A stretch of 64,000 nt of DNA from a virus. Lineage: Duplodnaviria; Caudoviricetes. Below, piece after piece: positions 48,419-62,996 of the stretch; position 1 is the first letter of the stretch, and every line of letters starts with the position of its first letter. Below the pieces are notes generated by a model. That model was given only the letters and a program-made list of their open reading frames with translations, was not told the DNA's origin and searched no databases. The stretch lies in the IMG/VR virus record IMGVR_UViG_3300048549_001527. The stretch is one strand, 5' to 3'. A program made the translations under genes and the position numbers.

Positions 48419-49399
48419 ATGTCAGAACATGACCTAGACGAAAAGTTCACGGTTGACGACGGTGGTTCGACTGTTCCTGCATCTTCAGTAGAAGATCCAG
48501 CAGCACCAGCCGGCGGAGCAGCCAAAAAGAAAAAAGCAGATGTTAAGAAATCAGTTGATCCAAAAGCTGATAAACTTGACGCTAAAACACCAGGAATGAA
48601 CGAAGAAGAAGCATCCGATACTGATGCCGTTGAAATCGTTGAAGAAGAAGTAATTTCTATCGACGAATCAATTGCAAAAATGTTTGAAGGAATGGACCTT
48701 TCTGAGGAATTCACAAATAAAGTTACTCTAGTTTTTGAAGCAGCTGTTAATGAATCGGCCACGAAAAAAGCTGAAGCTATGACAGAAGAATATGCAGCTA
48801 AAGTTGACGCAGAAATGCAAGAATCAGTCGACTCAACTGTAAGCACTATTATTGAGAATCTTGATTCATATCTCGACTACGTCGTAGAAGAGTGGATGAA
48901 AGAAAACGAACTCGCCATCGAATCCGGTATTAAGGTCGATATGGCAGAATCGTTAATGGACGGCCTGAAGGATCTTTTCACTGAGCACAACATTGCAGTA
49001 GACGACGAAGTCGTTGATGTGGTTGCAGGACTTGAAGAGAAAGTTGGAGAAATGACCGACGATGCAAACAAACGTATTGATGAAAATCTTGCGCTTGCAA
49101 AAGAGATCTCGGCTCTGAAGGCTGAAAAAGTTTTTAACGAAATGACTGAAGGACTTACGCTAACACAAGCCGAGCGTCTGAAAGTACTTTCCGAAAAGCT
49201 TGACTTCGAAAACGTTGATGAGTATACAGATAATCTAAATACTCTTAAAGAATCATTCTTTGCAGAATCCAAACCGGTGGTTGCAGAGGAAGCTCAAGAC
49301 GACGAAGAAGAAATCTTGACTGAGGAAACAGTTGTTGCTAAACCAGCTTCTGAAGATCCGTCAATCAATGCTCTTCTCGCAGCTTTTGCGAAGAAATAA
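48419..49399 (+). CDS. gp22: Prohead core scaffold gp22
   Basis: LSEEF..K...VFEAAV; LDSYLDYVVEEW..EN.LAIESG.K; LK.LF.EH; acidic coiled coil. Confidence 0.95.
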   Translation: MSEHDLDEKFTVDDGGSTVPASSVEDPAAPAGGAAKKKKADVKKSVDPKADKLDAKTPGMNEEEASDTDAVEIVEEEVISIDESIAKMFEGMDLSEEFTNKVTLVFEAAVNESATKKAEAMTEEYAAKVDAEMQESVDSTVSTIIENLDSYLDYVVEEWMKENELAIESGIKVDMAESLMDGLKDLFTEHNIAVDDEVVDVVAGLEEKVGEMTDDANKRIDENLALAKEISALKAEKVFNEMTEGLTLTQAERLKVLSEKLDFENVDEYTDNLNTLKESFFAESKPVVAEEAQDDEEEILTEETVVAKPASEDPSINALLAAFAKK

Positions 49400-50852: not shown

Positions 50853-51197
50853 TTACATTCCTAGAGCATCCATATACATTTCAGTCATTGCGTTTTCATT
50901 ATCAATATCATCACGGTTACGTTTACGAATTGAGACAATTTTACGCATTACCTTTGGTTCATATCCGCTGCCTTTTGCTTCGGCATAAACTTCCTTGATA
51001 GAGTCCATGATATCTCTCTTTTCTTGTTCCAAACGCTCAATCCGCTCAATGAATGCGCGAAGTTCATCTGCTGTTACTGTTGCTGTATCTTGTGCCATTA
51101 AATAATCTCCTGCTGTTGTAAATTTCAAATCACCCATATTATTACGATTAACAGCATCATAATCAGGGTAGCCTTTTTCAAAGACTGGGCTTTCCAT
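50853..51197 (-). CDS. gapR: DUF2312/GapR-like nucleoid-associated DNA-binding protein (core 81 aa from the ATG at 51098; optional 33-aa N-terminal extension from 51197)
   Basis: ADELRAFIERIERLEQEK..I...IKEVYAEAKG.GY..KVMRKIV..RKR is the GapR signature; SD present at both in-frame ATGs. Confidence 0.9.
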   Translation of the reverse strand: MESPVFEKGYPDYDAVNRNNMGDLKFTTAGDYLMAQDTATVTADELRAFIERIERLEQEKRDIMDSIKEVYAEAKGSGYEPKVMRKIVSIRKRNRDDIDNENAMTEMYMDALGM

Positions 51198-52517: not shown

Positions 52518-53474
52518 TTACGAAGCATTAGCCATCTCCAACGCAAGATCTAACGCATCAACTTTGCGCTTTGCGTTTGTTCCGAACCAAGCAGATGCCA
52601 TACGTGTATCTGCAGAACGACCTAGTTCATGGTCAGCCATATAGGTAACTGCATTATACGCGTTCCACCAAGTGCCAGGGCGGAAGTTATCTCCTGGTTG
52701 GTTTTCAACAACTTCAACAGCACGTTCAGCTGTTCGCGACAAATCACGGTCTTCGCGAGTCGACTCTCCAAAGATCTTTGCCATAAACCGGTTAAGTACT
52801 TCTTTGTCATAGTTTTTAGAACCAAGAAACTCGGCGGCTTCTTTAAACTTTTCAACTTTGTTGTGAGATAAACCAAGAATTTCTTTAACACTTTCAGGAT
52901 CAAACACTGAACGGTGATTTACACGCACAGATGGTTGGTTCTTTTCGTTAAGAGCTACAGCCAATGTGTTATTGCATACAACACGTTCCATTACGAACTT
53001 GATGTCAATGCTTTTTCCGTAAACATGTGGATTAGAAAACAAAAGGTAGCCTTTAACGGCATCACCACCGAAAAGCTCAAAGCCATCACGGACATCGGCA
53101 AGAGCCCAAACCAAACGGCCATCTTTCAACGAACCGGCTGTATCCATAGCCATATCTCCGTTTGAAACAAAGTCGTTAAAAAACTCAAATGCTTCAGAGT
53201 TTTGTACTGGGTTCCAACCAGTTCCAACTTGTGTAAGGATTTTTCCATCTGATGAACGGACCAACGCTTGTTGACCAGTTTCTTTTTGCTCACCGTTGTA
53301 ATTGATGAATGTGTTGACTTTTTCAACTGACCAGTCAAGGCCTGCTGCTTCCATCATTTGCTGCGGCGACATATCGTCACCAACAGGAACACCTAGTCCA
53401 TGCCAAGGTAGACCTTGACTTTCACGGTACGCCATTTGAGCTTGACCGTTAATCATTTCCAATTCATGTGCCAT
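52518..53474 (-). CDS. DUF932/DUF945 phage-plasmid family protein (TIGR03299-like)
   Basis: MAY....PWHGLG; QN.EAFEFF; TAGSL..G..VW.LA; YLL..N.H; RVVC.NTL..AL; GTWW..YNAVT. Confidence 0.85.
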   Translation of the reverse strand: MAHELEMINGQAQMAYRESQGLPWHGLGVPVGDDMSPQQMMEAAGLDWSVEKVNTFINYNGEQKETGQQALVRSSDGKILTQVGTGWNPVQNSEAFEFFNDFVSNGDMAMDTAGSLKDGRLVWALADVRDGFELFGGDAVKGYLLFSNPHVYGKSIDIKFVMERVVCNNTLAVALNEKNQPSVRVNHRSVFDPESVKEILGLSHNKVEKFKEAAEFLGSKNYDKEVLNRFMAKIFGESTREDRDLSRTAERAVEVVENQPGDNFRPGTWWNAYNAVTYMADHELGRSADTRMASAWFGTNAKRKVDALDLALEMANAS

Positions 53475-53506: not shown

Positions 53507-53535
53507 AGTATATACTGATTCCATTATAATGTCAA
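53507..53535 (-). promoter_or_regulatory. Sigma70-type early promoter P1
   Basis: TTGACA-17-TATACT; GAATC in the spacer. Confidence 0.85.
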
Positions 53536-53542
53536 CTGTTAA

Positions 53543-53836
53543 TTAAGCTAATTCATAACCAAAGTAAGACTTAACAAACTCGTTATCACAGTCTTTAGCA
53601 AAAGCCAAAACCAATGCCTCACGAGGTGATGTATCCATAAATTGAACGTGGTTTGCAAGTGTTTCGGAATCTGATTGACGGAACAAGCTGATAGCTTTGT
53701 GAAAATCGTCAGCATCTTCGTTATACATATCAGAAAGATCGCCGCTATCTTTAGCATATTCACGATACACGGCAACCAATTTAGCTACGTTTGTAAGAGG
53801 TGTTTCCGTCCAAAATTTTTGAGCTTGAGTTGTCAT
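53543..53836 (-). CDS. Hypothetical early protein
   Basis: AAGGA SD favours the ATG at 53836; directly behind P2. Confidence 0.65.
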   Translation of the reverse strand: MTTQAQKFWTETPLTNVAKLVAVYREYAKDSGDLSDMYNEDADDFHKAISLFRQSDSETLANHVQFMDTSPREALVLAFAKDCDNEFVKSYFGYELA

Positions 53837-53867
53837 TGTCTGATTCCTTTTCATTTGTTATATTAAT

Positions 53868-53896
53868 AATATAACTGATTCTATATAGAATGTCAA
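53868..53896 (-). promoter_or_regulatory. Sigma70-type early promoter P2
   Basis: TTGACA-17-TATATT; spacer TTCTATATAGAATCAGT. Confidence 0.9.
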
Positions 53897-53924
53897 CAAT
53901 AAAATGAAAATAAATTAAATTATT

Positions 53925-54257
53925 TTAGTGGATCGTTTCGTTATACATTGGCAAAGCGTCAACCATGTCATGAGTATATTGAGTAAACCCAGATTTAATC
54001 AAATCCACTACATCAACATATTGACCGTCAGAATGTATTTCCGCAACTTTACATAGAGGATAGTCCTCAATTAAAAAGGCTTGCATATATTTAAATGCTT
54101 CTCTTTTTGTATCAAAAGAATATGCCCTGCTGATACCGAACATATCATTTTTTGAAAATATTCTCATGATACTCAGTATACCATTTCCGCCAGGAGCGGG
54201 CATACGATGAGTACCAAGGAATACTCCCATTTCTTCGTCAATGATTACATATCTCAA
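53925..54257 (-). CDS. Hypothetical protein
   Basis: Open frame from 54287; likely TTG start at 54257 (AAGGA SD, TTGA overlap with the denV stop). Confidence 0.6.
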   Translation of the reverse strand: MRYVIIDEEMGVFLGTHRMPAPGGNGILSIMRIFSKNDMFGISRAYSFDTKREAFKYMQAFLIEDYPLCKVAEIHSDGQYVDVVDLIKSGFTQYTHDMVDALPMYNETIH

Positions 54258-54823
54258 GCTGGATATCCTTGAAAACCTTGCCACCAATAAGGAGCTTCAC
54301 GGCCTTTATTCCATACGGCAAAGTCTTTAGTCATATGATAGTATTTACGATATGCCGCGACTGGATCGCCTGCAACTTTACACAATGGAAAGTTATTCAT
54401 TGCTTGAGGAAATTCTGTCAAACCTACATCTGGTATATTTTCGGGTGGCTGAGCAAGTACTTCAGTCAACTTATTTGCAGTCATATGAAGCTTTTTGTAT
54501 CTTACTAGAAACTCATCTACAAGCCCGAGAAAGTGCTCATAATGCCATAGATAATTGGCCTTTGATTTCATAGACCAAATTGTGCATGGATGATGGTGGT
54601 GAACTGCTTTATATAAGGTATTTTCTAGGTTACTGTTAGGATGAACATAGTACTTAACCATAACCTTACCTGACTTTGAAGGACGTTTTTCCATGTAACC
54701 GTCAAGCATACGATGAGCCGTGGACAGCATTTGTCCAGACTCAATAATCATCTTACTGCAGTGTTTGTCGCAGACCATCTGAGCCGCTTCTCGCGGCTCT
54801 TCAGATAACACAAATATATTCAT
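54254..54823 (-). CDS. denV: Pyrimidine-dimer DNA glycosylase (DenV/endonuclease V family)
   Basis: MNIF.L...P..AA...CDKH..KM..E..QMLSTAH; H..HPC.IW; FPQAM; V.AYR.YY. Confidence 0.8.
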   Translation of the reverse strand: MNIFVLSEEPREAAQMVCDKHCSKMIIESGQMLSTAHRMLDGYMEKRPSKSGKVMVKYYVHPNSNLENTLYKAVHHHHPCTIWSMKSKANYLWHYEHFLGLVDEFLVRYKKLHMTANKLTEVLAQPPENIPDVGLTEFPQAMNNFPLCKVAGDPVAAYRKYYHMTKDFAVWNKGREAPYWWQGFQGYPA

Positions 54824-55122
54824 ATAGCAAATCCTTTGTTTTGCAAGATACGAAGCGGAGCACCGTCAATACCTTCGTCTTTACGAGCTTCAACATATTC
54901 TTCAACTGTGAAGTTATTAATAAGGAACTTTTTGAAAGCACCCATTTTAACAGGTCCACCGCTATACTTAAAGCGAGCGATAAACAATTCTTTTGGCATA
55001 CCTACGCGTGAAGGATGACAGTTAGGAGCAACTTGATCCCATGTTGGCTGACCTTCGTAAGTACCTGTGTACTCAAGATATCCGCCGTGGTAGGTAAACT
55101 TTTTTCTATCAAACTTAGTCAT
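54820..55122 (-). CDS. Hypothetical early protein
   Basis: AAGGAG SD; directly behind P3. Confidence 0.7.
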   Translation of the reverse strand: MTKFDRKKFTYHGGYLEYTGTYEGQPTWDQVAPNCHPSRVGMPKELFIARFKYSGGPVKMGAFKKFLINNFTVEEYVEARKDEGIDGAPLRILQNKGFAI

Positions 55123-55134
55123 AGTGATTCTCCT

Positions 55135-55142
55135 TATTTATA
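55135..55142 (-). promoter_or_regulatory. T4-type late promoter in tandem with P3
   Basis: Minus-strand TATAAATA, 5 nt downstream of the P3 -10. Confidence 0.55.
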
Positions 55143-55147
55143 GAATC

Positions 55148-55176
55148 AATATAATCTATTTCATAATGAATGTCAA
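55148..55176 (-). promoter_or_regulatory. Sigma70-type early promoter P3
   Basis: TTGACA-17-TATATT followed directly by GATTC; the -35 overlaps the TGA stop of the exonuclease gene. Confidence 0.85.
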
Positions 55177-55844
55177 TGGCGTTCTTTCATTTCTTTGTAC
55201 TTTTTTCGTACTGCAATGAAATGCTCTAAATAATCATAAGTGTTGACTTTAAAAATTTGTGGTTCTGAACCGTCTACAGTTATCAAGATTACACCTTGTT
55301 TAATGGGTATGGAAGTTCGTTCGTAAAATGCAGCTGCATAAAAAGATGCTTGAATAAAATAGTTAGTAATCCATTCTTCTTTCTTTGGTTTCCTTGATGT
55401 TTTAAAATCAACAATAGAAAGCTGACCGTCAAACTCAGCAATACAGTCAACCTGTCCTGCGCATTTTAGTCTATCAGAATATAAGAACTCTTCTTGAAAC
55501 CAAACATTATTTAAGCGTTGGTCAAGTATAGATTTTAAATCATTAAAGGATTGGAGATTTGAAGGCATTGCACCTTTGTTCCAATCCTCTTTGTTATCTA
55601 AATAATCTTCTGCAAGTTTGTGTACCGCAGTACCACGAGTTGCAGCTTGTTGTGATATTCTGTTGGCTTCTGCTTCGCCGACTCTTTGTCGCCATGCAAG
55701 AATGCCTTCTTTATTCAATACACCGAGAACCGTTGTGATTGACGGATATGCATTACCTTCCGGTGTAAAGTATTTTCTACCACTTTTAGTGGTTTCGCGT
55801 GTTAATTTGGGAAGCACCACGCCGTGCTCAACATGATTAAACAT
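55173..55844 (-). CDS. PD-(D/E)XK exonuclease (Cas4/RecB-like)
   Basis: YPSITTVL; RGTAVH...EDYL; AG.VDCIAE..G...IVDFKTS; YF.Q...YA. Confidence 0.85.
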   Translation of the reverse strand: MFNHVEHGVVLPKLTRETTKSGRKYFTPEGNAYPSITTVLGVLNKEGILAWRQRVGEAEANRISQQAATRGTAVHKLAEDYLDNKEDWNKGAMPSNLQSFNDLKSILDQRLNNVWFQEEFLYSDRLKCAGQVDCIAEFDGQLSIVDFKTSRKPKKEEWITNYFIQASFYAAAFYERTSIPIKQGVILITVDGSEPQIFKVNTYDYLEHFIAVRKKYKEMKERH

Positions 55845-55852
55845 AATATAAA

Positions 55853-56200
55853 TTAGCCGCCTATAATTACTTTAGACGCTCCTGATGTTATTTCTGCGCC
55901 GCACAGATAGGTATCACCTTTCCGTCCAGCTTTCTTTCCTTCAATTTTAACCTTAGTAGAACCTGAGTTAAATTTTGGAGTATGAGTAGAACAGGTGCCG
56001 CCTATTGGATGAGCAGTAACTTTGTTGTCTCCACGAACAACACCTGTTCCCATTGCAAAAACTTTTTCGCTGCACTCGTTGGTTGTAGTGTCAATAGGAT
56101 CTACGTCACAGAATGAACTATCATCTGTATCTTCGTCTCCTGTTGCAGGATGTACTGTATCCACAGTATCTACTGAATCTCCACGTGCAGCTTCTGGCAT
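55853..56200 (-). CDS. PAAR-domain spike tip protein (T4 gp5.4 equivalent)
   Basis: AAR.GD-like repeats; H and C ligands (CSTH...GS..V.IEG....R.GD...CGA.I.SG...V.IGG). Confidence 0.75.
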   Translation of the reverse strand: MPEAARGDSVDTVDTVHPATGDEDTDDSSFCDVDPIDTTTNECSEKVFAMGTGVVRGDNKVTAHPIGGTCSTHTPKFNSGSTKVKIEGKKAGRKGDTYLCGAEITSGASKVIIGG

Positions 56201-56201
56201 T

Positions 56202-56951
56202 TTATGCAGCCTCTAAAAGTTTTTCTTTTGCAATTATATATTCTTTAACTAATCCTGACCGAACAATATCTTCCACTCCAAATCTTACTACGTCAAAAGA
56301 TGGAATGGCGCTTAAAACTTTTATAAAGTCATGTAAGCCTGTAATATCTGCTCTGTTTCGAGATTGCTGAAGATCGTCTTGCTTTGTATCACCACAGAAA
56401 ATAATCTTTGATGATTCGCCGACTCGAGTAATAATGCTATCAAGTTCGTGGTAAGTCATTGACTGGCATTCATCTACGATAATGATTGCGTTGTCAAACG
56501 TGAGTCCTCTTACAAATGATGATGTTTTAAACTCTATCATACCTTTTGTTTTTAAAATTTGATAAGCATCCTTTCTTCCAAATAGATCGTTTGTGATATC
56601 AGTGTACGGTGCTTCGAACACTGCCTCTTTCTGTGCCTGAGAACCTGGCATAAAACCTTGCTCTCTTGTCTGAACTGCAGATCTAATTATGACGACCTTT
56701 TCATATTCTCCTTTCTGTAGTACATCATTGAGTGCCAAATATGTAGCACACATTGTTTTTCCTGTACCTGCCGTTCCGATGGCTGCTAGATTAAATCCTT
56801 GTTGATAAGAGTCAAATAAATCAGATTGAGATGGTGTTAATGGTTTTATTTGTCGCATTGAAAACTTAGTGTTTAAAACACGCATCATATGTTCTTGATC
56901 TCTTTCTGCTCTTCTTCTTTCTTTCCGGGATAGTCTGCGCTGTTTAGCCAT
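56202..56951 (-). CDS. phoH: PhoH-family ATPase
   Basis: GTAGTGKT; R.QGF.PG...K; SF.RG.TFDNAIIIVDE.Q; TRVGE.SKIIF.GD..Q.D; DIVRSGLVK. Confidence 0.95.
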   Translation of the reverse strand: MAKQRRLSRKERRRAERDQEHMMRVLNTKFSMRQIKPLTPSQSDLFDSYQQGFNLAAIGTAGTGKTMCATYLALNDVLQKGEYEKVVIIRSAVQTREQGFMPGSQAQKEAVFEAPYTDITNDLFGRKDAYQILKTKGMIEFKTSSFVRGLTFDNAIIIVDECQSMTYHELDSIITRVGESSKIIFCGDTKQDDLQQSRNRADITGLHDFIKVLSAIPSFDVVRFGVEDIVRSGLVKEYIIAKEKLLEAA

Positions 56952-56970
56952 GAAACCTCCTAGTGGTTTA

Positions 56971-57231
56971 TTACCACGTGTTTATTTTATTTTGAGCTCC
57001 ACCTTTTTTAATTGAACTTGGATGGTGCTTTTTTACGTTGCTTAAAACATCACGAAACCCAGCGTCAGGCTTTTTAAGACCAAGACGTACTGAGTCACCA
57101 ATAGCTGGTGGCCTTCCAATTCTTTGAGTTATATTAGGGTTTTCTTTGAGGTAGAGATCTCGCTCTGAGATCTTCATAATTTTATCAAATACAGTACCAG
57201 TGTTTGTATCTTCAAACGTATAGGTTGGCAT
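56971..57231 (-). CDS. FmdB-family zinc-ribbon-like regulatory protein (Cys-less variant)
   Basis: MPTY.F....TG..F......SE; GF..VL..VKK.HP; the usual CxxC is absent. Confidence 0.6.
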   Translation of the reverse strand: MPTYTFEDTNTGTVFDKIMKISERDLYLKENPNITQRIGRPPAIGDSVRLGLKKPDAGFRDVLSNVKKHHPSSIKKGGAQNKINTW

Positions 57232-57286
57232 CAAGTCTCCTCTTTTTCAAATAATTCATAGTGTACCAATTTACCAATTGTAAAAC

Positions 57287-57294
57287 TATTTATA
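57287..57294 (-). promoter_or_regulatory. T4-type late promoter driving the FmdB-PhoH-PAAR-exonuclease unit
   Basis: Minus-strand TATAAATA in the intergenic gap; GAGGAG SD follows. Confidence 0.75.
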
Positions 57295-57305
57295 ACGCAA
57301 AACAG

Positions 57306-57917
57306 TTATCCAACGATTAATTCATAAATTTCTTTCCAATTATTTGCACGAGTGGTTAGAGAATTAATTTCAGTATTTTCATTATGATGGTGATTGACTA
57401 GAATTGCTTCTAAACCAAGCGCAGTGCCAAGGTCAGCATTTTGTGGTTTGTCTTCAACCCAATAACAACCAGTTCCAGAATATGGCGCAAGAGCATCATC
57501 TTTGTCAGCTCCAGTGTCAAGGTAAGTAAAGTTTTCAAAGACGCTAGGACCAAACATTTCAATCAAGTTTTTAGTTCGAAGATGTTGAGAATAATAGCAA
57601 GTACTCAATGAACTGATTACTCGGAAGACATATCCGTGTTCCTCATGGAGTTTCCGAACATACTTAATTGCATCACGTAAAGGCGGAAGTTTACGGATCC
57701 AAGCAGACTCGTTGAACATACGAACAATCCGTTCTTTATCTTCAACTCGTAAGCCATAGCGAAGAGTCATATCATACTGATCTTCCATGCCTTCTTGGAT
57801 TTGATAATCATGACGTTCCATCCAACCTGTGAACGCGTATTCCCAATCAAGGAGTACTCCGTCAACGTCAACTAGGATGACTTTGTCGGCAATGGTTTCA
57901 TTAGAACGGTTATACAT
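57306..57917 (-). CDS. HAD-family 5'(3')-nucleotidase
   Basis: VILVDVDGVLLDW; DK; WVEDKP.N. Confidence 0.85.
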   Translation of the reverse strand: MYNRSNETIADKVILVDVDGVLLDWEYAFTGWMERHDYQIQEGMEDQYDMTLRYGLRVEDKERIVRMFNESAWIRKLPPLRDAIKYVRKLHEEHGYVFRVISSLSTCYYSQHLRTKNLIEMFGPSVFENFTYLDTGADKDDALAPYSGTGCYWVEDKPQNADLGTALGLEAILVNHHHNENTEINSLTTRANNWKEIYELIVG

Positions 57918-57918
57918 A

Positions 57919-58191
57919 TTAGGCTACTTTCTTTAATAGTGATGGTGTAACTTTCCAAGTTACGGTAGGAGTTTTAACGACGATAGTCTTCTGATTGATT
58001 TTTGAAATCAGACCTTCAATACGACCACGGCGATTTGCGTCAAACCAAACTTTATCTCCGACGTTAAATGCGTTTCCGATTTCACGTTGCGTTTGACGTT
58101 GACGATTTTTGACTTCTGTGATAATTGCATCAAGTGTATCCTTGTCAGCGTTACGGATTGTTTTCAGTGTTGTTTGGTTTAACTTTTTCAT
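57919..58191 (-). CDS. Hypothetical protein with KOW/SH3-like C-terminus
   Basis: FNVGDKVWF...G.I.KIN.KT..V; SD AAAGGA favours the ATG at 58191. Confidence 0.65.
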   Translation of the reverse strand: MKKLNQTTLKTIRNADKDTLDAIITEVKNRQRQTQREIGNAFNVGDKVWFDANRRGRIEGLISKINQKTIVVKTPTVTWKVTPSLLKKVA

Positions 58192-58217
58192 TTTCATTTT
58201 CCTTTGTTGATATATAC

Positions 58218-58246
58218 AATCTATCTGATTCGCGAGCAAATGTCAA
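58218..58246 (-). promoter_or_regulatory. Sigma70-type early promoter P4
   Basis: TTGACA-17-TAGATT; CGAATCA in the spacer (TGATTCG on the + strand). Confidence 0.8.
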
Positions 58247-58252
58247 TAGTTA

Positions 58253-58645
58253 TTATGCAGACTCCGCAAATAAATTCATTTCAACTTCTTCCATTAACCA
58301 AGTGCCATTTGGTCCATAAGTTGAAGTGAAGAACCACGCGTCACCATCGAAAAGATAAAGATAATCAGCAGAGGCAAATTCGCGTCCTTCTGCTAAGAAT
58401 TCTTCAACTGAATTATATGTTACAGGGGATTGGTTTGAATGGACTGACTCATCCAAAGATGTTTGTAGGTCATCTTTTAAAGATGAGATATAACCAGCAT
58501 TTGCCAATTCTTTGGCAAGCTTTGGTGTGTTATACCATTCGTACAACTGACGGCCGTTATAAGCAAGATAACCATCATAATGACAATATGTTGCAGTAAC
58601 TGTGCCGTCTTCGTTGTAGTTTGCGATCATTGATGAAGTACCCAT
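58253..58645 (-). CDS. Hypothetical phage protein (YCHxDGY family)
   Basis: MGT.S.I...YCHYDGY...G..L...Y; DYLYLF; behind P5. Confidence 0.75.
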   Translation of the reverse strand: MGTSSMIANYNEDGTVTATYCHYDGYLAYNGRQLYEWYNTPKLAKELANAGYISSLKDDLQTSLDESVHSNQSPVTYNSVEEFLAEGREFASADYLYLFDGDAWFFTSTYGPNGTWLMEEVEMNLFAESA

Positions 58646-58679
58646 AAGATTGATTCCTTTTGTTTTACCTTATAGAATC

Positions 58680-58708
58680 AATATAACCTATTTGTACTCA
58701 AATGTCAA
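58680..58708 (-). promoter_or_regulatory. Sigma70-type early promoter P5
   Basis: TTGACA-17-TATATT followed directly by GATTC. Confidence 0.9.
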
Positions 58709-58727
58709 TAGTTAATATGAAAAAGAA

Positions 58728-58901
58728 TTATCTTTTTTGTTCTTCAGTATCAAGATTGGAATATTTTTCTTGCCGTTTCAGTTTCTTTTTATCACGACGA
58801 TTTTTCATACGCTTTTCCTTACTGCGTACGCTTCGTTCTTCGTTGTGACCCCATTCATCGTGTTCCCAATCTTCACGGAACTCTTTAAAACTTTTAGCCA
58901 T
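58728..58901 (-). CDS. Small charged protein, 57 aa (not in the ORF track)
   Basis: Translated by hand: MAKSFKEFREDWEHDEWGHNEERSVRSKEKRMKNRRDKKKLKRQEKYSNLDTEEQKR; AGGA SD; fills the gap exactly. Confidence 0.7.
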   Translation of the reverse strand: MAKSFKEFREDWEHDEWGHNEERSVRSKEKRMKNRRDKKKLKRQEKYSNLDTEEQKR

Positions 58902-58910
58902 TGGTCTTTC

Positions 58911-59351
58911 CTATGATACTTTCTCTTTAATTTCTATTAAGTCAGGAAATGCTGTCATGACTGTCTTTAAAGATAATCCTTTTGGTGATTTTCTAGTAAT
59001 CATTTTACACAACATTTCAGCGTCATCATTATCAACATCTTCTAATAAACTAATGAATAAACTTTCACGCTTAATTTGGTTTAAATTATCATAACCGCCG
59101 CCTTTGATAAAAATCTTAAGGCGACGAGCTTCGTGATACAACAAACTTTTAGCTTCATCCTCGTACTCATTTTTTTTCCAAGGTGGAGGTGTGTCAGGAA
59201 TTAAAAACTCAACAGTTTCGTCATACCAAAGTTTAAGAATAGTTTTTAGTGGTTGATTTTCGTTTTCTTGAAGCCACGCCACTTTATCCTTCTTAACTGG
59301 TATTTCTATTGCTTTATTTATGATTTCTGAAATTGATCTTCTAACTGCCAT
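58911..59351 (-). CDS. Conserved T4-like hypothetical protein adjacent to RNase H
   Basis: K..KV..L.E.....L..IL...YD..VEF..P...PP..K; L..E.R.L..F.KGG....L...KRE..FI.LLE. Confidence 0.75.
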   Translation of the reverse strand: MAVRRSISEIINKAIEIPVKKDKVAWLQENENQPLKTILKLWYDETVEFLIPDTPPPWKKNEYEDEAKSLLYHEARRLKIFIKGGGYDNLNQIKRESLFISLLEDVDNDDAEMLCKMITRKSPKGLSLKTVMTAFPDLIEIKEKVS

Positions 59352-60212
59352 TTAAAAATCCTGTATATCTGAAATTAGGTTTTTGAGTTTTCGGTTAACA
59401 AAGAAGTTAAACAGTTGAGACCGTCCAACATCTTTGTCTATGTTATACTCTTCAAGAATTGCCGTTTGATAATTTGTAGGAATCTGAGACAAGTCAATCA
59501 TTGTCTTGTTGCGATGATAACGGCGTAATGTTTCTTCGTCCATTCCATCTGTTCCAGCACGGAATTGCTCTATGCGCTTTTTAGTCATAGGCTTTTGACG
59601 TTGGCCAACTGCTAAGCAATTGTCTGGTGAAAGAATATTTGGAACACCGTCACCAGTGTCACCTTTTAAGACATGCTCAATTAAATATTGGTCAGGATTG
59701 TCATTACGAATCCAACGTTTGCGAACTGGGTCAAACTGATCTACATTAGCGTAAGTATGTAACTGTATGTAGTCCTTGTCTCCAGATAGAACAAGAAATT
59801 GTTCAGCTCCGCCATTTAGGACAGTGCCATTCTCGTGGATGATGGTACCAATGATATCATCAGCTTCAAGATGATCCATATGAAGAACTTTGTAAGGAAA
59901 GAACTCCTTTAGCTCGTCGCGGATAGTATTCATAATACCAAACAAATGAGTCCAATCGAGTTCAGACTCATCACGAGACTTTTTACGATTAGCTTTGTAA
60001 TATGGATATAGTTCACGGCGCCATGTATTTTTGCCATCAGCGCATATTACGATTTCTCCGTAATCTTCGGTAAACTTTTTACGATTAGCTCGTATTGAAT
60101 TTAGGAACATATGACGAATAAGATTTTCGTCAATGTCCACGTTGTGGTGGTTACCGATGCTTGCGAATAGCGAAGCAAGAATAACTTGATTGTAGTCAAC
60201 TAGTATAGCCAT
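59352..60212 (-). CDS. rnh: RNase H / 5'-3' exonuclease (T4 rnh)
   Basis: ILVDYNQ; RHM.LNSIR; D....WRR..YP.YKA.RK; EADDIIG; LSGDKD.IQL; KGD.GDGVPNILS. Confidence 0.95.
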   Translation of the reverse strand: MAILVDYNQVILASLFASIGNHHNVDIDENLIRHMFLNSIRANRKKFTEDYGEIVICADGKNTWRRELYPYYKANRKKSRDESELDWTHLFGIMNTIRDELKEFFPYKVLHMDHLEADDIIGTIIHENGTVLNGGAEQFLVLSGDKDYIQLHTYANVDQFDPVRKRWIRNDNPDQYLIEHVLKGDTGDGVPNILSPDNCLAVGQRQKPMTKKRIEQFRAGTDGMDEETLRRYHRNKTMIDLSQIPTNYQTAILEEYNIDKDVGRSQLFNFFVNRKLKNLISDIQDF

Positions 60213-60249
60213 TTTGTTTTCTCTGTTTCAATTTTATTTAATAATTACT

Positions 60250-60278
60250 ATACTAATCTAAATCTTCTTCAATGTCAA
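60250..60278 (-). promoter_or_regulatory. Sigma70-type promoter P6 for rnh, embedded in the 3' end of the upstream gene
   Basis: TTGACA-17-TAGTAT; encoded by codons V-D-I-E-E-D-L-D-stop; no GANTC. Confidence 0.65.
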
Positions 60279-60615
60279 CCATTTTTTTAGCTTCTGCCTC
60301 AAAATTTTCTATTTCTTCAATATCAACAAATTCTGAAGCAAACTCTTGCAATGGATGATGAACGCCATGAGCTTGTAAATGTAAGGACCTAATTGCTTCA
60401 AGTACTAATACCATAGATGGAAAATGCTTTTTTATTTCTTTATCAAAATCGCATCCCATACGTGACATTTCGCCAAGAAGATTTCTCCATAAGTATTCAG
60501 AAGCTTCTTCGGCTATTTCTTCCTTATAATCAATAAGAACTTGCTGTAGTTCTTCACGTGTCTTTGCTGACGCGTTAACTTTGTCCTTTACAGGAAATTC
60601 TATGACATTAGACAT
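60253..60615 (-). CDS. Hypothetical acidic protein
   Basis: MSNVIEFP start; TAATG coupling. Confidence 0.7.
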   Translation of the reverse strand: MSNVIEFPVKDKVNASAKTREELQQVLIDYKEEIAEEASEYLWRNLLGEMSRMGCDFDKEIKKHFPSMVLVLEAIRSLHLQAHGVHHPLQEFASEFVDIEEIENFEAEAKKMVDIEEDLD

Positions 60616-61580
60616 TATCCGTTTCCAGCGCTATTTAAATCTTGCAATAATCTGTTCCAACTATTTGTAAAACTATTTATACTGTTCCGTGCTAAATTGA
60701 AGCGATCTGATGTTGTAAACTTTGGAATGAAGTTTGGATCAGATTTTTGAATATCTAATACTTGCTTTACAACTGAAAATGCGCGATTAGCATGTACGTT
60801 AGGATCCTCATGCCAATCATATGTAATTGTTGCGTTGGCTGCGGTTTCAGATAGTCCACCGTAATTTGGATGAATACAAAGTACGCCGCTTTTAATTGCT
60901 TCAATTAACGCGATACAAGATGTTTCTTTCCAAATATTTGGATATAAGAATATGTGAGCTTTATCCAACGCGGCTAATACTCTTTCATTAGGAACTGAGC
61001 CATGATATGTCATATTAGGATGAGCATGGATTTTCGTAAACAAATCAACGTAAGGATCGTCTCTTTCAACCCAGCCATAAATTGCAAAAGAAGAATAAAC
61101 ATCAAGATGAATATTTTTATAATCTTTAGACAACGCATCTACGATTGGATACAAAAGTTCAAGACCACGGTGCGGAGTAGTATGATAAATCAAACGGATT
61201 TCATTTGCATCTTTATCGAGATTTGGGTTATAAGGTTTTTCAACCGCGTTAGGAATTACTGAACACATTGAGTACGGAATGTTGTAATACGTGATGTACA
61301 TATCTCGTTGCCATGCTGTTACAAAAACAAAATGGTCAAAGTCTTTCCATCCGTTATTTGCAAGAACTTTGTTTTCAGGATCTTCAGCTAAGTCATGGCA
61401 GTACATAATGTTTTTTACGTTAGTGTACATTTCACGTGGGCGCGAAAAATGAATAGCAAAATTTTGCAATACATCGCTTGGCACATTATCAATAACGCGC
61501 TTACGCATCATTTCAGTTCCGCCTATTGAATTTTTGGACTGTTCTGTTTCAATAATGTTACCTTGGTAAATACAGCTCAT
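60615..61580 (-). CDS. GT-B fold glycosyltransferase (GT4-like)
   Basis: GGTE; HD...D; FV..WQ; VIPNAV; IY.TTP.RGL..L; HG.V....V...L..AHIFLYP.IW.ETSCIALIEA..SG. Confidence 0.85.
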   Translation of the reverse strand: MSCIYQGNIIETEQSKNSIGGTEMMRKRVIDNVPSDVLQNFAIHFSRPREMYTNVKNIMYCHDLAEDPENKVLANNGWKDFDHFVFVTAWQRDMYITYYNIPYSMCSVIPNAVEKPYNPNLDKDANEIRLIYHTTPHRGLELLYPIVDALSKDYKNIHLDVYSSFAIYGWVERDDPYVDLFTKIHAHPNMTYHGSVPNERVLAALDKAHIFLYPNIWKETSCIALIEAIKSGVLCIHPNYGGLSETAANATITYDWHEDPNVHANRAFSVVKQVLDIQKSDPNFIPKFTTSDRFNLARNSINSFTNSWNRLLQDLNSAGNG

Positions 61581-61834
61581 AAATTAAACTCCGTGCTAAA
61601 ATCTTTAATTGTATCCCAACGGAATGAACGCCAGCCTTTAGCTTCAACATCCCATACTGCGAGAACATCAGGATTTGGTTTCTTTTTTTGAATTTGTTCT
61701 TCAATGTCAATTTGTTCTGGTAACATTGATTCTTGAAGTGTACAATGCATGATGCGCTCATCACCATTCTTTTTTGTAAAAACAACTTTACATATGCCTT
61801 TATGAAGGCTATCTTTCATTTCATCATTTGTCAT
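61577..61834 (-). CDS. Small SH3/WYL-like phage protein (DUF2693-like)
   Basis: L..G...V.FTK.NG.ER.M.CT; V.AVWD.E..GWRSFR. Confidence 0.75.
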   Translation of the reverse strand: MTNDEMKDSLHKGICKVVFTKKNGDERIMHCTLQESMLPEQIDIEEQIQKKKPNPDVLAVWDVEAKGWRSFRWDTIKDFSTEFNL

Positions 61835-61856
61835 AATCTATCTCACTTTATATATG

Positions 61857-62096
61857 TTATTTAAATACCAACTTTACTACTTCGTAATCTCTTAATACTT
61901 CAAAGGTGGCCGTAGCTAAATCAATAGTAGGTTCTTTTCTTATTCTTGATAAAACCCTGTCTACAAAGAATAGTTCTTTTCCATTATCTGCCATGATTTC
62001 AAGGCCTTCAAAAAAAGTTTCAATGTCATAAGGATTTTCATTGAAAACACTTTTCAGATAACGCTGAGTTTCTGTTCTGTTTGCTGATTTGTCCAC
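61857..62096 (-). CDS. Hypothetical protein
   Basis: AGGAAGGA SD; start overlaps the end of the kinase gene. Confidence 0.55.
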   Translation of the reverse strand: MDKSANRTETQRYLKSVFNENPYDIETFFEGLEIMADNGKELFFVDRVLSRIRKEPTIDLATATFEVLRDYEVVKLVFK

Positions 62097-62712
62097 GTTG
62101 TCCTTCCTTTTTATATATTGCTTCTAAAACATTATGAAGGTCTTTAAGATTTCCATTGTTATGGATTCTGTAAGTGTCAACTTCAAACTTATGAGGCAAT
62201 ACATATTTTTTATTGATTGCGGTCTGTTTTTCGTTAGTGAACTCTTGAATAACGTTACCGTCAAAATAACGCCTTGAGTCCGTCGAATAATCACAGCCTT
62301 CACGTGTAAGCTGCACTAATACGAAATTATTGGATCCAACTCTATTTATAACAGGAAGGAGTTCGTCAACAAATCCGCCGTCAGAAATTGCGTAATTCTT
62401 ACTCATATCAATTTCGTTTGCAACTTGTAGACCAAAATAATCTAAACCACGTTTAGGCTTAATTACTTTTTCTGAAACATAAATCATTGCTTCACGGCAA
62501 GACATATGGCCAAGATCCATATGAGGAACTTCTTTTACAGAACGATCGTCATATCTATTCATAAACCATTCATAGCTTATATCAAAGTATTTTGCGGTTT
62601 CTTTATACAATTGATATTTAAAAGAAAGGTGTTTCCAACCTTTTTGTTTTTTGAAATAATCAGCAGCTGCGTCTTTTCCTGAAAGAGGAGGACCATTAAA
62701 TAAAATGATCAT
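62038..62712 (-). CDS. gp1: Deoxynucleoside monophosphate kinase (T4 gp1-like)
   Basis: NGPPLSGKD.AA; HLSFK..L; SCREAMI..SE...KP..G..YFG; ISDGGF.DE; start at 62712 by ATGA overlap. Confidence 0.8.
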   Translation of the reverse strand: MIILFNGPPLSGKDAAADYFKKQKGWKHLSFKYQLYKETAKYFDISYEWFMNRYDDRSVKEVPHMDLGHMSCREAMIYVSEKVIKPKRGLDYFGLQVANEIDMSKNYAISDGGFVDELLPVINRVGSNNFVLVQLTREGCDYSTDSRRYFDGNVIQEFTNEKQTAINKKYVLPHKFEVDTYRIHNNGNLKDLHNVLEAIYKKEGQRGQISKQNRNSALSEKCFQ

Positions 62713-62939
62713 GCAAATTGGTCCTCCACGATATTTAGAATTTCTTCGGAAAACGCATTTTTCCATTCTTGAGGTGTCATGCCCGAAAGAATGAATTCAC
62801 GATCTTCAATTGATAAGTAAGGAAGTAAGTCATCCATACTTCCGTACCCAGCTTCGTATTGAGCAAAGTCTTTAGGATCCATAGGAATATCCTTTGTGCG
62901 GACAATTCCTGAAAAGGCACTTGTTTTTTTGATAATCAT
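62709..62939 (-). CDS. Hypothetical early protein
   Basis: GGAG SD favours the ATG at 62939; LS.EDREFI.SG.TP.EW motif; behind P7. Confidence 0.7.
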   Translation of the reverse strand: MIIKKTSAFSGIVRTKDIPMDPKDFAQYEAGYGSMDDLLPYLSIEDREFILSGMTPQEWKNAFSEEILNIVEDQFA

Positions 62940-62967
62940 GACATTCTCCATTAACTGATTCTAGATT

Positions 62968-62996
62968 AATATAATCTATTCTAATAGAAATGTCAA
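62968..62996 (-). promoter_or_regulatory. Sigma70-type early promoter P7
   Basis: TTGACA-17-TATATT; GAATC 6 nt downstream of the -10; the -35 overlaps the TGA stop of the GIY-YIG gene. Confidence 0.85.

Follow-up and report, generated by a model that had tools for sequence, protein, structure and literature searches.

The stretch of DNA analyzed here (64,000 nucleotides (nt); IMG/VR record IMGVR_UViG_3300048549_001527; Duplodnaviria, Caudoviricetes; hereafter the window) derives from an abundant, uncultured marine T4-like myovirus, and its early promoters carry repeated copies of the hexamer TGATTC/GAATCA, which is the subject of this report. A megablast search of the window against phages revealed no match. 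The major head protein showed 68% identity to those of the Sinorhizobium phages phiM12 and phiN3 and 60-64% identity to those of Melnitz, the pelagiphage HTVC008M and cyanophages, and a search of sequencing runs revealed that seawater metagenomes of many studies contain a near-complete stretch of the window. The early gene block includes genes for GapR, DUF932, PD-(D/E)XK nuclease, PAAR, PhoH, NT5C and DUF6433 proteins, as well as for a T4-type RNase H, a GT4 glycosyltransferase, WYL_2, a dNMP kinase and a SegE-like GIY-YIG nuclease. We found seven perfect TTGACA-N17-TAnnnT promoters (P1 to P7), each with a start codon 40-65 nt downstream; over the whole window this pattern occurred 10 times, compared with 1.2 expected from shuffles. 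Nine copies of the hexamer were present in six of the seven promoters, either in the spacer, next to the -10 element or in the leader, where some adjoin the Shine-Dalgarno (SD) sequence (Table 1).

Table 1. Promoters, hexamer copies and other features of the window. Box coordinates are relative to predicted start sites, assumed to lie 7 nt after the -10; YGAKTCK is the broader GcrA consensus discussed in the text.
Feature	Position	Strand	Sequence	Remarks
P1	53507..53535	-	TTGACA-N17-TATACT	sigma70-type early promoter; drives DUF932 gene 52518-53474
P1 spacer copy	53516-53521	-	GAATCA	GAATC centred ~-19; 7-mer on GATTC strand TGATTCC
P2	53868..53896	-	TTGACA-N17-TATATT	
P2 spacer copy	53876-53881	-	GAATCA	centred -18; template strand TGATTCT
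P2 leader copy	53841..53846	-	AAAAGGAATCAG	adjoins SD of probable start 53836; ~+18; TGATTCC, breaks YGAKTCK
P3	55148..55176	-	TTGACA-N17-TATATT	
P3 copy	55143-55148	-	TGATTCT	abuts -10 on downstream side; centred -4
P3 leader copy	55125..55130	-	AAGGAGAATCAC	centred +14
P4	58218..58246	-	TTGACA-N17-TAGATT	
P4 spacer copy	58226-58231	-	cGAATCAg	centred -18; full TGATTCG consensus on template strand
P5	58680..58708	-	TTGACA-N17-TATATT	drives 130-aa gene 58253-58645
P5 copy	58675-58680	-	TGATTCT	abuts -10 downstream; centred -4
P5 leader copy	58651..58656	-	AAAAGGAATCAAT	centred +20
P6	60250..60278	-	TTGACA-N17-TAGTAT	rnh promoter; no GANTC; -10 includes stop codon of upstream open reading frame (ORF) 60253-60615
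P7	62968..62996	-	TTGACA-N17-TATATT	
P7 copy	62956-62961	-	AGAATCA	6 nt after -10; centred ~+3
GapR-domain gene (114 aa)	50853..51197	-		host-class marker; PF10073, E 3e-31
Early gene block	~50.8 kb to window end	-		
T4-type late genes	window	+		terminase, tail sheath, portal, scaffold, major head protein

The 383 nt of promoter and leader sequence contained eight copies of the hexamer, or nine if the P2 gene begins at its second ATG, compared with 0.11 expected from the window background (Poisson P 4e-13) and 0.28 expected from dinucleotide shuffles (P 7e-10). Over the whole window, TGATTC/GAATCA was under-represented (26 copies, 46.5 expected), and so was GANTC overall. The enrichment of the hexamer in the promoters is thus real, and the motif is selected and part of the core promoter. 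An earlier note on this DNA, made from its letters alone, had described the seven promoters and the nine copies in six of them, and every coordinate that it gave was correct. Its account of their placement also held, with the site in the spacer of P1, P2 and P4, abutting the -10 of P3 and P5, 6 nt downstream in P7 and repeated beside the SD of P2, P3 and P5; the absence of the hexamer from P6, which overlaps the stop codon of an upstream ORF, and the full YGAKTCG form of P4, which reads TGATTCG, were confirmed as well. The note had roughly estimated 0.3 copies by chance; its proposed count of promoter against non-promoter sequence revealed enrichment in the promoters and depletion of GAWTC outside them.

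Additionally, a T4-type late-promoter word, TATAAATA, lies in the P3 leader directly after the GATTC box (~55128-55140, minus strand), so that an early and a late promoter may both drive the gene at 54820-55122.

Related loci, cassettes and genome-wide avoidance

We compared the window with 80 related IMG/VR loci found with an RNase H query (71-100% identity, 793 kb in total). Promoters of the same type occurred 356 times on the gene strand and once on the opposite strand, and this bias indicates that the matches are real promoters. About 200 of the promoters were unique (204 for the window and relatives together); 71 of roughly 200 had GANTC between the -35 and about +45, and the preferred positions held only GAATC or GATTC. 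The first of these positions is in the spacer, starting 14 or 15 nt beyond the initial T of the -35 and centred at -19/-18 (25 copies), and the second immediately follows the -10 or, for reversed copies, is shifted by one nt downstream (18 copies); the leader copies were dispersed, centred at +3 to +23, and commonly adjoined the SD. In the relatives, the spacer bases upstream of the box varied freely and GAATC(A/G)G was constant. The rnh promoters showed a further GATTC peak 46 nt before the -35, which was rejected as a promoter element, being coding sequence of the upstream gene.

When the promoters were grouped by the protein that they drive, we found identical promoter-plus-leader cassettes in front of unrelated genes, and orthologues that carried differing cassettes, with or without the box. 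At least five cassette contexts contained the box, which occurred in either orientation and preceded members of more than 10 gene families. The raw copy counts are inflated because the cassettes share ancestry; the earlier note had warned of this, correctly, as the promoters fall into a few reused promoter-leader cassettes.

Direct comparison of the sequences around the -10 revealed inverted repeats of at least 7 bp in 35 of the 204 promoters, with 11.6 expected; in the seven promoters of the window, the longest repeats of this kind measure only 4-6 bp. The arms were of 29 distinct kinds and differed in sequence by lineage, for example in the rnh promoters of three relatives (L098:9937-9998, L079:9935-9996 and L085:9936-9997) and in the window (60217-60278, minus strand); with such repeats, the -10 would lie in the hairpin loop of read-through RNA or of single-stranded DNA. 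RNAalifold revealed no consensus structure among 34 rnh promoters.

The copies beside the SD appear to form a separate layer. P3 and P5 each have their two boxes, one after the -10 and one beside the SD, in inverted orientation, and the leader copy would form the 3' arm of a predicted hairpin. In read-through RNA, the P3 hairpin (-9.9 kcal/mol, z -2.5) would cover the AUG and the edge of the SD, and the P5 hairpin (9 bp, -8.7 kcal/mol, z -1.4) includes the SD, while RNA initiated at either promoter would lack the 5' arm. The z-scores are weak, and we saw no compensatory changes for the P3 and P5 hairpins. The SD-side copies are probably either 3' arms of hairpins that occlude the ribosome-binding site (RBS) or AUG of read-through RNA, or elements of a conserved SD context. 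Extended pairing with the 3' end of 16S rRNA was considered and rejected, as GGAATCA does not prolong the complementarity to the anti-SD sequence.

The most box-rich promoter, P5, precedes the gene for a 130-amino-acid (aa) protein (58253-58645, minus strand; phrog_1987, T4-GC 66-like). Among the relatives, this gene was found only in box-using lineages and was absent from box-poor ones, and its family also occurs in cyanophage-type T4-like phages; the box was present in 55% of the other promoters in loci with the gene and in 25% in loci without it. The predicted model has an α/β fold (predicted local distance difference test (pLDDT) score 92.4) with only uncharacterized neighbors in the AlphaFold database, and structure comparison of the model revealed no match in the PDB and no match to a DNA-binding fold. 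The protein as a candidate reader of the box is a lead rather than a finding.

Outside the promoters, the core pentamer is avoided. With the amino acid sequence and codon usage held fixed in synonymous-codon shuffles, the coding sequence of the window contained 44 GA(A/T)TC sites compared with 122 ± 8 expected (z -9.7). Of the 512 pentamers ranked by depletion, GAATC/GATTC came second in the window and first in the relatives; it ranked 1-3 in the marine bacterium HTCC2255 (0.55) and an Amylibacter (0.34), both introduced below as candidate hosts, and in phiM12 (0.58), HTVC008M (0.16) and Cr30 (0.79), and 56th (0.87) in Melnitz, a phage of a betaproteobacterium. In the window, GAWTC was 6.1 times as dense in intergenic as in coding sequence, compared with 1.1-1.9-fold in other alphaproteobacterial T4-like phages. 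In CcrM-bearing genomes, GANTC is at least two-fold under-represented and is over-represented intergenically (Gonzalez 2014, PMC3973325), and the avoidance seen in the phage appears to be this signature.

Several local patterns accompany the avoidance. The head scaffolding gene (48419-49396, plus strand) holds, within it or at its edge, nine of the 52 GA(A/T)TC sites of the window; seven are in-frame GAA-TCN (Glu-Ser) codon pairs, and the gene forms a local exception to the avoidance. The most depleted pentamer of the window is GATCA/TGATC (95 sites, 167 expected), and GATCC/GGATC is enriched (137, 84 expected). Over the whole window GA(G/C)TC is enriched 1.6-1.8-fold, and GAC-TC seems to stand in for GAT-TC. 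The SAR11 phage HTVC008M (NC_020484) is nearly free of GANTC, with 28 GAWTC sites against 180 expected and 15 GASTC sites against 72 expected.

The candidate reader and host

The published consensus of the regulator GcrA is TGATTCG, or more broadly YGAKTCK, and the sites of its regulon are "narrowly centered around -20" and "from +2 to +30", with almost none around the -10 (Haakonsen 2015, PMC4647560). GcrA is a monomeric reader tethered to sigma70, with sites at -20 ± 1, -30 ± 2 and +5 to +30 (Wu 2023, PMC9976885); in the cryo-electron microscopy scaffold, TTGACA-N17-TATAAT, the non-template strand bore G(m6A)ATC at spacer nt 8-12 (Wu et al. 2023). In the phage promoters, 25 of the 26 unique spacer copies obeyed YGAKTCK, reading on the GATTC strand TGATTCT (18), TGATTCG (4), CGATTCT (2), CGATTCG (1) and TGATTCC (1), where local base composition would give about 30% YGATTCK. 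Equally, 25 of the 26 had the strand arrangement of the GcrA-RNA polymerase (RNAP)-promoter complex, at spacer nt 9-13 or 10-14. The copies after the -10 read TGATTCT in 19 of 20 cases, although the Y is here merely the last T of the -10. The leader copies were mostly TGATTCC, that is, AAAGGAATCA, which breaks the rule. Within the window, P2, P3, P4, P5 and P7 fit YGAKTCK; the P1 spacer copy and two SD-side copies (TGATTCC) do not. The box is a single short site used in both orientations, as suits a monomeric reader.

These comparisons bear on the proposal of the earlier note that the promoters carry GcrA-type sites. The core-promoter copies do match the published consensus. As for position, the spacer and leader copies lie in or next to the published GcrA windows, and the copies abutting the -10 lie outside them. 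The SD-side copies did not hold up as GcrA-type sites; their mostly TGATTCC reading is better suited to hairpin arms or SD context. The wider idea of GANTC sites was borne out in that GAWTC is depleted outside the promoters as in CcrM-bearing genomes, but only the GA(A/T)TC half is used and avoided.

The gene for GapR, which the earlier note had taken to indicate an alphaproteobacterial host, was identified by its PF10073 match, and its nearest bacterial homologues were indeed from Rhodobacterales. In particular, the 58 closest homologues in species-representative genomes were led entirely by Rhodobacterales, at 56-66% identity, with other orders lower. Five Rhodobacterales genomes picked in this way (HTCC2255, an Amylibacter, Thalassobium R2A62, LSUCC0387 and a Halocynthiibacter metagenome-assembled genome) each encode GcrA (E ~1e-46) and one N6_N4 methyltransferase of CcrM size (373-398 aa). 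The GC content of HTCC2255 is 37% in the DNA sampled, compared with 38-39% in the phage, and its GcrA DNA-binding domain is identical to that of Caulobacter through the recognition helices, including R33, the role of which has been described (PMC5887438). A search of the five genomes for TTGAC-N9-11-GAATCR-N1-3-TANNNT gave no matches, the pattern being too strict to inform. A marine Rhodobacterales host is suggested by these data, and only suggested because the homologue search was pattern-seeded.

The motif was absent, or nearly so, from promoters of this type in the cultured T4-like phages that we scanned (phiM12, phiN3, HTVC008M, Melnitz and Cr30), so alphaproteobacterial T4-like phages do not generally have the box. 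GAATC was present in only 2 of about 21 promoters of phiM12 and phiN3, which have a different spacer element, GGGAATTTTTC; HTVC008M and Melnitz have TG-extended -10 promoters without GANTC, and Cr30 has no TTGACA-N17-type promoters. In phiM12 (NC_027204) and phiN3 (NC_028945), GGGAATTTTTC stands directly before the TATGTT or TATTTT -10 of TTGACA-type promoters (phiM12 98854-98882 and 150044-150072) and fills the same part of the spacer as GAATCAG in the present phage.

Weighing the explanations

The reading that we put forward, tentatively and as a serious possibility rather than a probable one, is that one marine T4-like phage lineage put host GcrA boxes into its mobile early-promoter cassettes. 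The hexamer would be the core of a short, orientation-tolerant cis element, TGATTCT/TGATTCG (YGATTCK), spread via these cassettes, and the element would most likely be a GcrA box. Host GcrA, riding on sigma70-RNAP, would dock its small DNA-binding domain on a box that lies either within the spacer (about -19/-18) or shortly past the -10 and start site and would help the polymerase to load and to open the early promoters, so that early phage transcription would be biased to cells in the GcrA-rich, replicating phase. This suggests a link between the first genes of the phage and the epigenetic cell-cycle machinery of the host; both roles of GcrA, as reader of the phage boxes and as their activator, are ones that we infer from sequence. 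A stricter idea, which takes up the methylation-sensing switch of the earlier note and in which the phage would use the CcrM/GcrA module of the host as a gate, is in our judgment unlikely. Here the early promoters would be efficient only with GcrA and with the right adenine-methylation state of the boxes, which would be set in the previous host or on replicated genomes and would time infection to the replication phase of the host.

A number of observations weigh against GcrA as the reader. Host CcrM is normally made only briefly, near-consensus promoters would be expected to be strong unaided, the promoters of orthologous genes are often free of the box, and the host is itself one that we infer. 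The main spacer class lies 1-2 bp nearer to the -10 than in the solved GcrA complex, and a large class at -6 to -2, abutting the -10 (centred -4/-3), falls where Haakonsen found almost no GcrA sites. The promoters use only GA(A/T)TC and not GA(G/C)TC, and in coding sequence the latter is enriched (91 sites, 50.5 expected, z +6.6); in Caulobacter, TGAGTCG ranked third among GcrA sites and CcrM methylates all GANTC (PMC4647560). A search for gcrA and CcrM-like genes, as the earlier note had proposed, found none in the early ORFs of the window, in five relatives of 52-82 kb or, by tblastn with HTCC2255 GcrA and CcrM, in 790 kb of related loci, and no adenine methyltransferase was found in the window or the relatives. 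There was no such promoter enrichment in phiM12, phiN3, HTVC008M or Cr30, and a GcrA-motif scan of alphaproteobacterial phages found no positional bias (Mascolo 2022, PMC9437464). Finally, the share of promoters with a box was 83, 62, 40, 14 and 6% as RNase H identity dropped from 95-100% to 71-73%. Because box use declines in this way while genome-wide depletion stays at 0.66-0.72 over the same range, the boxes appear to be a recent, lineage-specific addition to an older avoidance.

Some of these points would suit a different dedicated reader, either a phage protein or another host protein, that recognizes AGAATCA and, for example, shuts the early promoters off later, with the GcrA match a coincidence. 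The sites overlap the RNAP footprint (spacer, discriminator and start site) in either orientation, as a repressor's would; the specificity is narrower than GANTC; the motif is lineage-specific while the basic promoter is shared, as if the lineage had gained a factor; and the 130-aa gene sits under the most box-rich promoter, its presence tracking use of the motif. We nevertheless regard this account as doubtful, since no candidate has a recognizable DNA-binding domain, the confident model of the 130-aa protein (pLDDT 92) is without a PDB match, and box promoters also occur in loci that lack its gene. Moreover, a chance match to YGAKTC (one of four hexamers) with the same flanks, strand and position, in a phage of the sole GcrA-bearing class, is unlikely. 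The alternative that no trans-acting reader exists, and that the hexamer hitch-hikes in multiplied cassettes of the mobile early-promoter/stem-loop (PeSL) type, seems unlikely to us. Its function would then be local: tuning of RNAP kinetics, RBS-hiding hairpins in read-through RNA, or SD-side extension of the conserved AAAGGAAT context. This would explain why one cassette precedes unrelated genes and different cassettes precede orthologues, as in the mobile cassettes of T4-type phages (PMC2839356, PMC4122927). Box-free promoters hold near-misses (GAATAG, AAATAG) at the same place in the spacer, the leader copies are mostly the SD plus ATCA, and the P3 and P5 copies pair as SD/AUG hairpins, consistent also with the excess of inverted repeats around the -10; the weakness of the hairpin statistics and the lack of compensatory changes count on the other side. 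The absence of a reader would leave unexplained the roughly three-fold purge of GAWTC from coding sequence, the confinement of flank variation to Y and K, and the same 7-mer in at least five unrelated contexts and both orientations while neighboring spacer bases vary freely.

The purge itself could have served to evade a restriction enzyme of the host with specificity for GA(A/T)TC, as in TfiI, or for unmethylated GANTC; the promoter copies would then be unrelated and tolerated. In keeping with this, the depletion is indifferent to the flanks and hits the bare pentamer (0.67 with Y..K, 0.59 with others), GA(G/C)TC is spared, and strong GANTC depletion is common in alphaproteobacterial T4-like phages, at 0.16-0.21 in HTVC008M. 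Restriction avoidance would deplete the site in the phage and not in the host, however, and we found the candidate hosts depleted just as strongly (0.55 and 0.34, ranks 1 and 2 of 512), a pattern that cutting of foreign DNA leaves unexplained; it would also be costly to retain cleavable sites by the dozen in essential early promoters. This explanation is therefore very unlikely.

Phages borrow host sigma factors and, in Alphaproteobacteria, CtrA sites; to our knowledge, the use of GcrA boxes or CcrM marks in phage promoters has not been demonstrated. If host GcrA does read the boxes, very abundant marine phages, probably of roseobacters, would couple the start of infection to the cell-cycle and epigenetic state of the host, with a bearing on infection dynamics in the sea, and work on the mechanism of GcrA would gain natural promoters that are compact, near-consensus and equipped with GcrA boxes at defined positions. 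If real, the gate would give an abundant marine T4-like phage with a lytic cycle an early switch that reads methylation. Two observations are new whether or not GcrA is the reader: a 7-mer purged from the genome occupies as many as 83% of early promoters, and GAATC/GATTC ranks in the top three for avoidance among the pentamers of all the alphaproteobacterial T4-like phages that we examined.

Comparison with known systems

The cassettes resemble the PeSLs of T4-type phages, which are likewise near-perfect, many-times-repeated sigma70 promoters before variable small ORFs, exchanged between genes; here, too, we found a repeated near-consensus sigma70 promoter before variable ORFs that is swapped between genes. 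PeSLs, many of which come with a stem-loop attached, are known from phages that infect enterobacteria, Vibrio and Aeromonas (Arbiol 2010, Comeau 2014; PMC2839356, PMC4122927). No third box has been reported in them, whereas the present cassettes add a conserved 7-mer that is otherwise avoided in the genome. Some promoters of the relatives are enclosed in terminator-like hairpins (-35 positions L076:2831, L078:10920 and L080:11503), in which a G5 run, a loop with the -35, a C4-5 run and T6 follow one another; such G-run/C-run-T hairpins over the -35 have the composite promoter-terminator layout described for PeSLs.

The T4 genes e, soc, 49 and I-TevI are under translational control by alternative transcripts, with a late internal promoter. 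P3 and P5 are alike in that their read-through RNA would be able to fold over the RBS or AUG, while the promoter RNA lacks the 5' arm. They differ in that the internal promoter is of the early sigma70 type, and the predicted stems are short with weak statistics.

Compared with the GcrA boxes of Caulobacter crescentus (Haakonsen 2015, Wu 2018, Wu 2023), the phage boxes belong to the same 7-mer family, are likewise single sites in sigma70 promoters, and, going by the predicted start sites, lie in the spacer near -20 or in the first 30 nt after the start. The Caulobacter boxes are methylated and serve a host regulon; the phage has only the A/T-centred form, a shifted spacer site, an extra class at the -10 and promoters that are already near-consensus. 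CtrA boxes are present in promoters of phiCbK-like and other alphaproteobacterial phages, where "lytic deferment" has been proposed (PMC9437464). Those phages differ from the present one in the regulator (CtrA), the motif (TTAA-N7-TTAA) and their type, being siphoviruses, but in both cases sites of a host cell-cycle master regulator would lie in phage promoters, and phage expression would track the cell-cycle state of the host.

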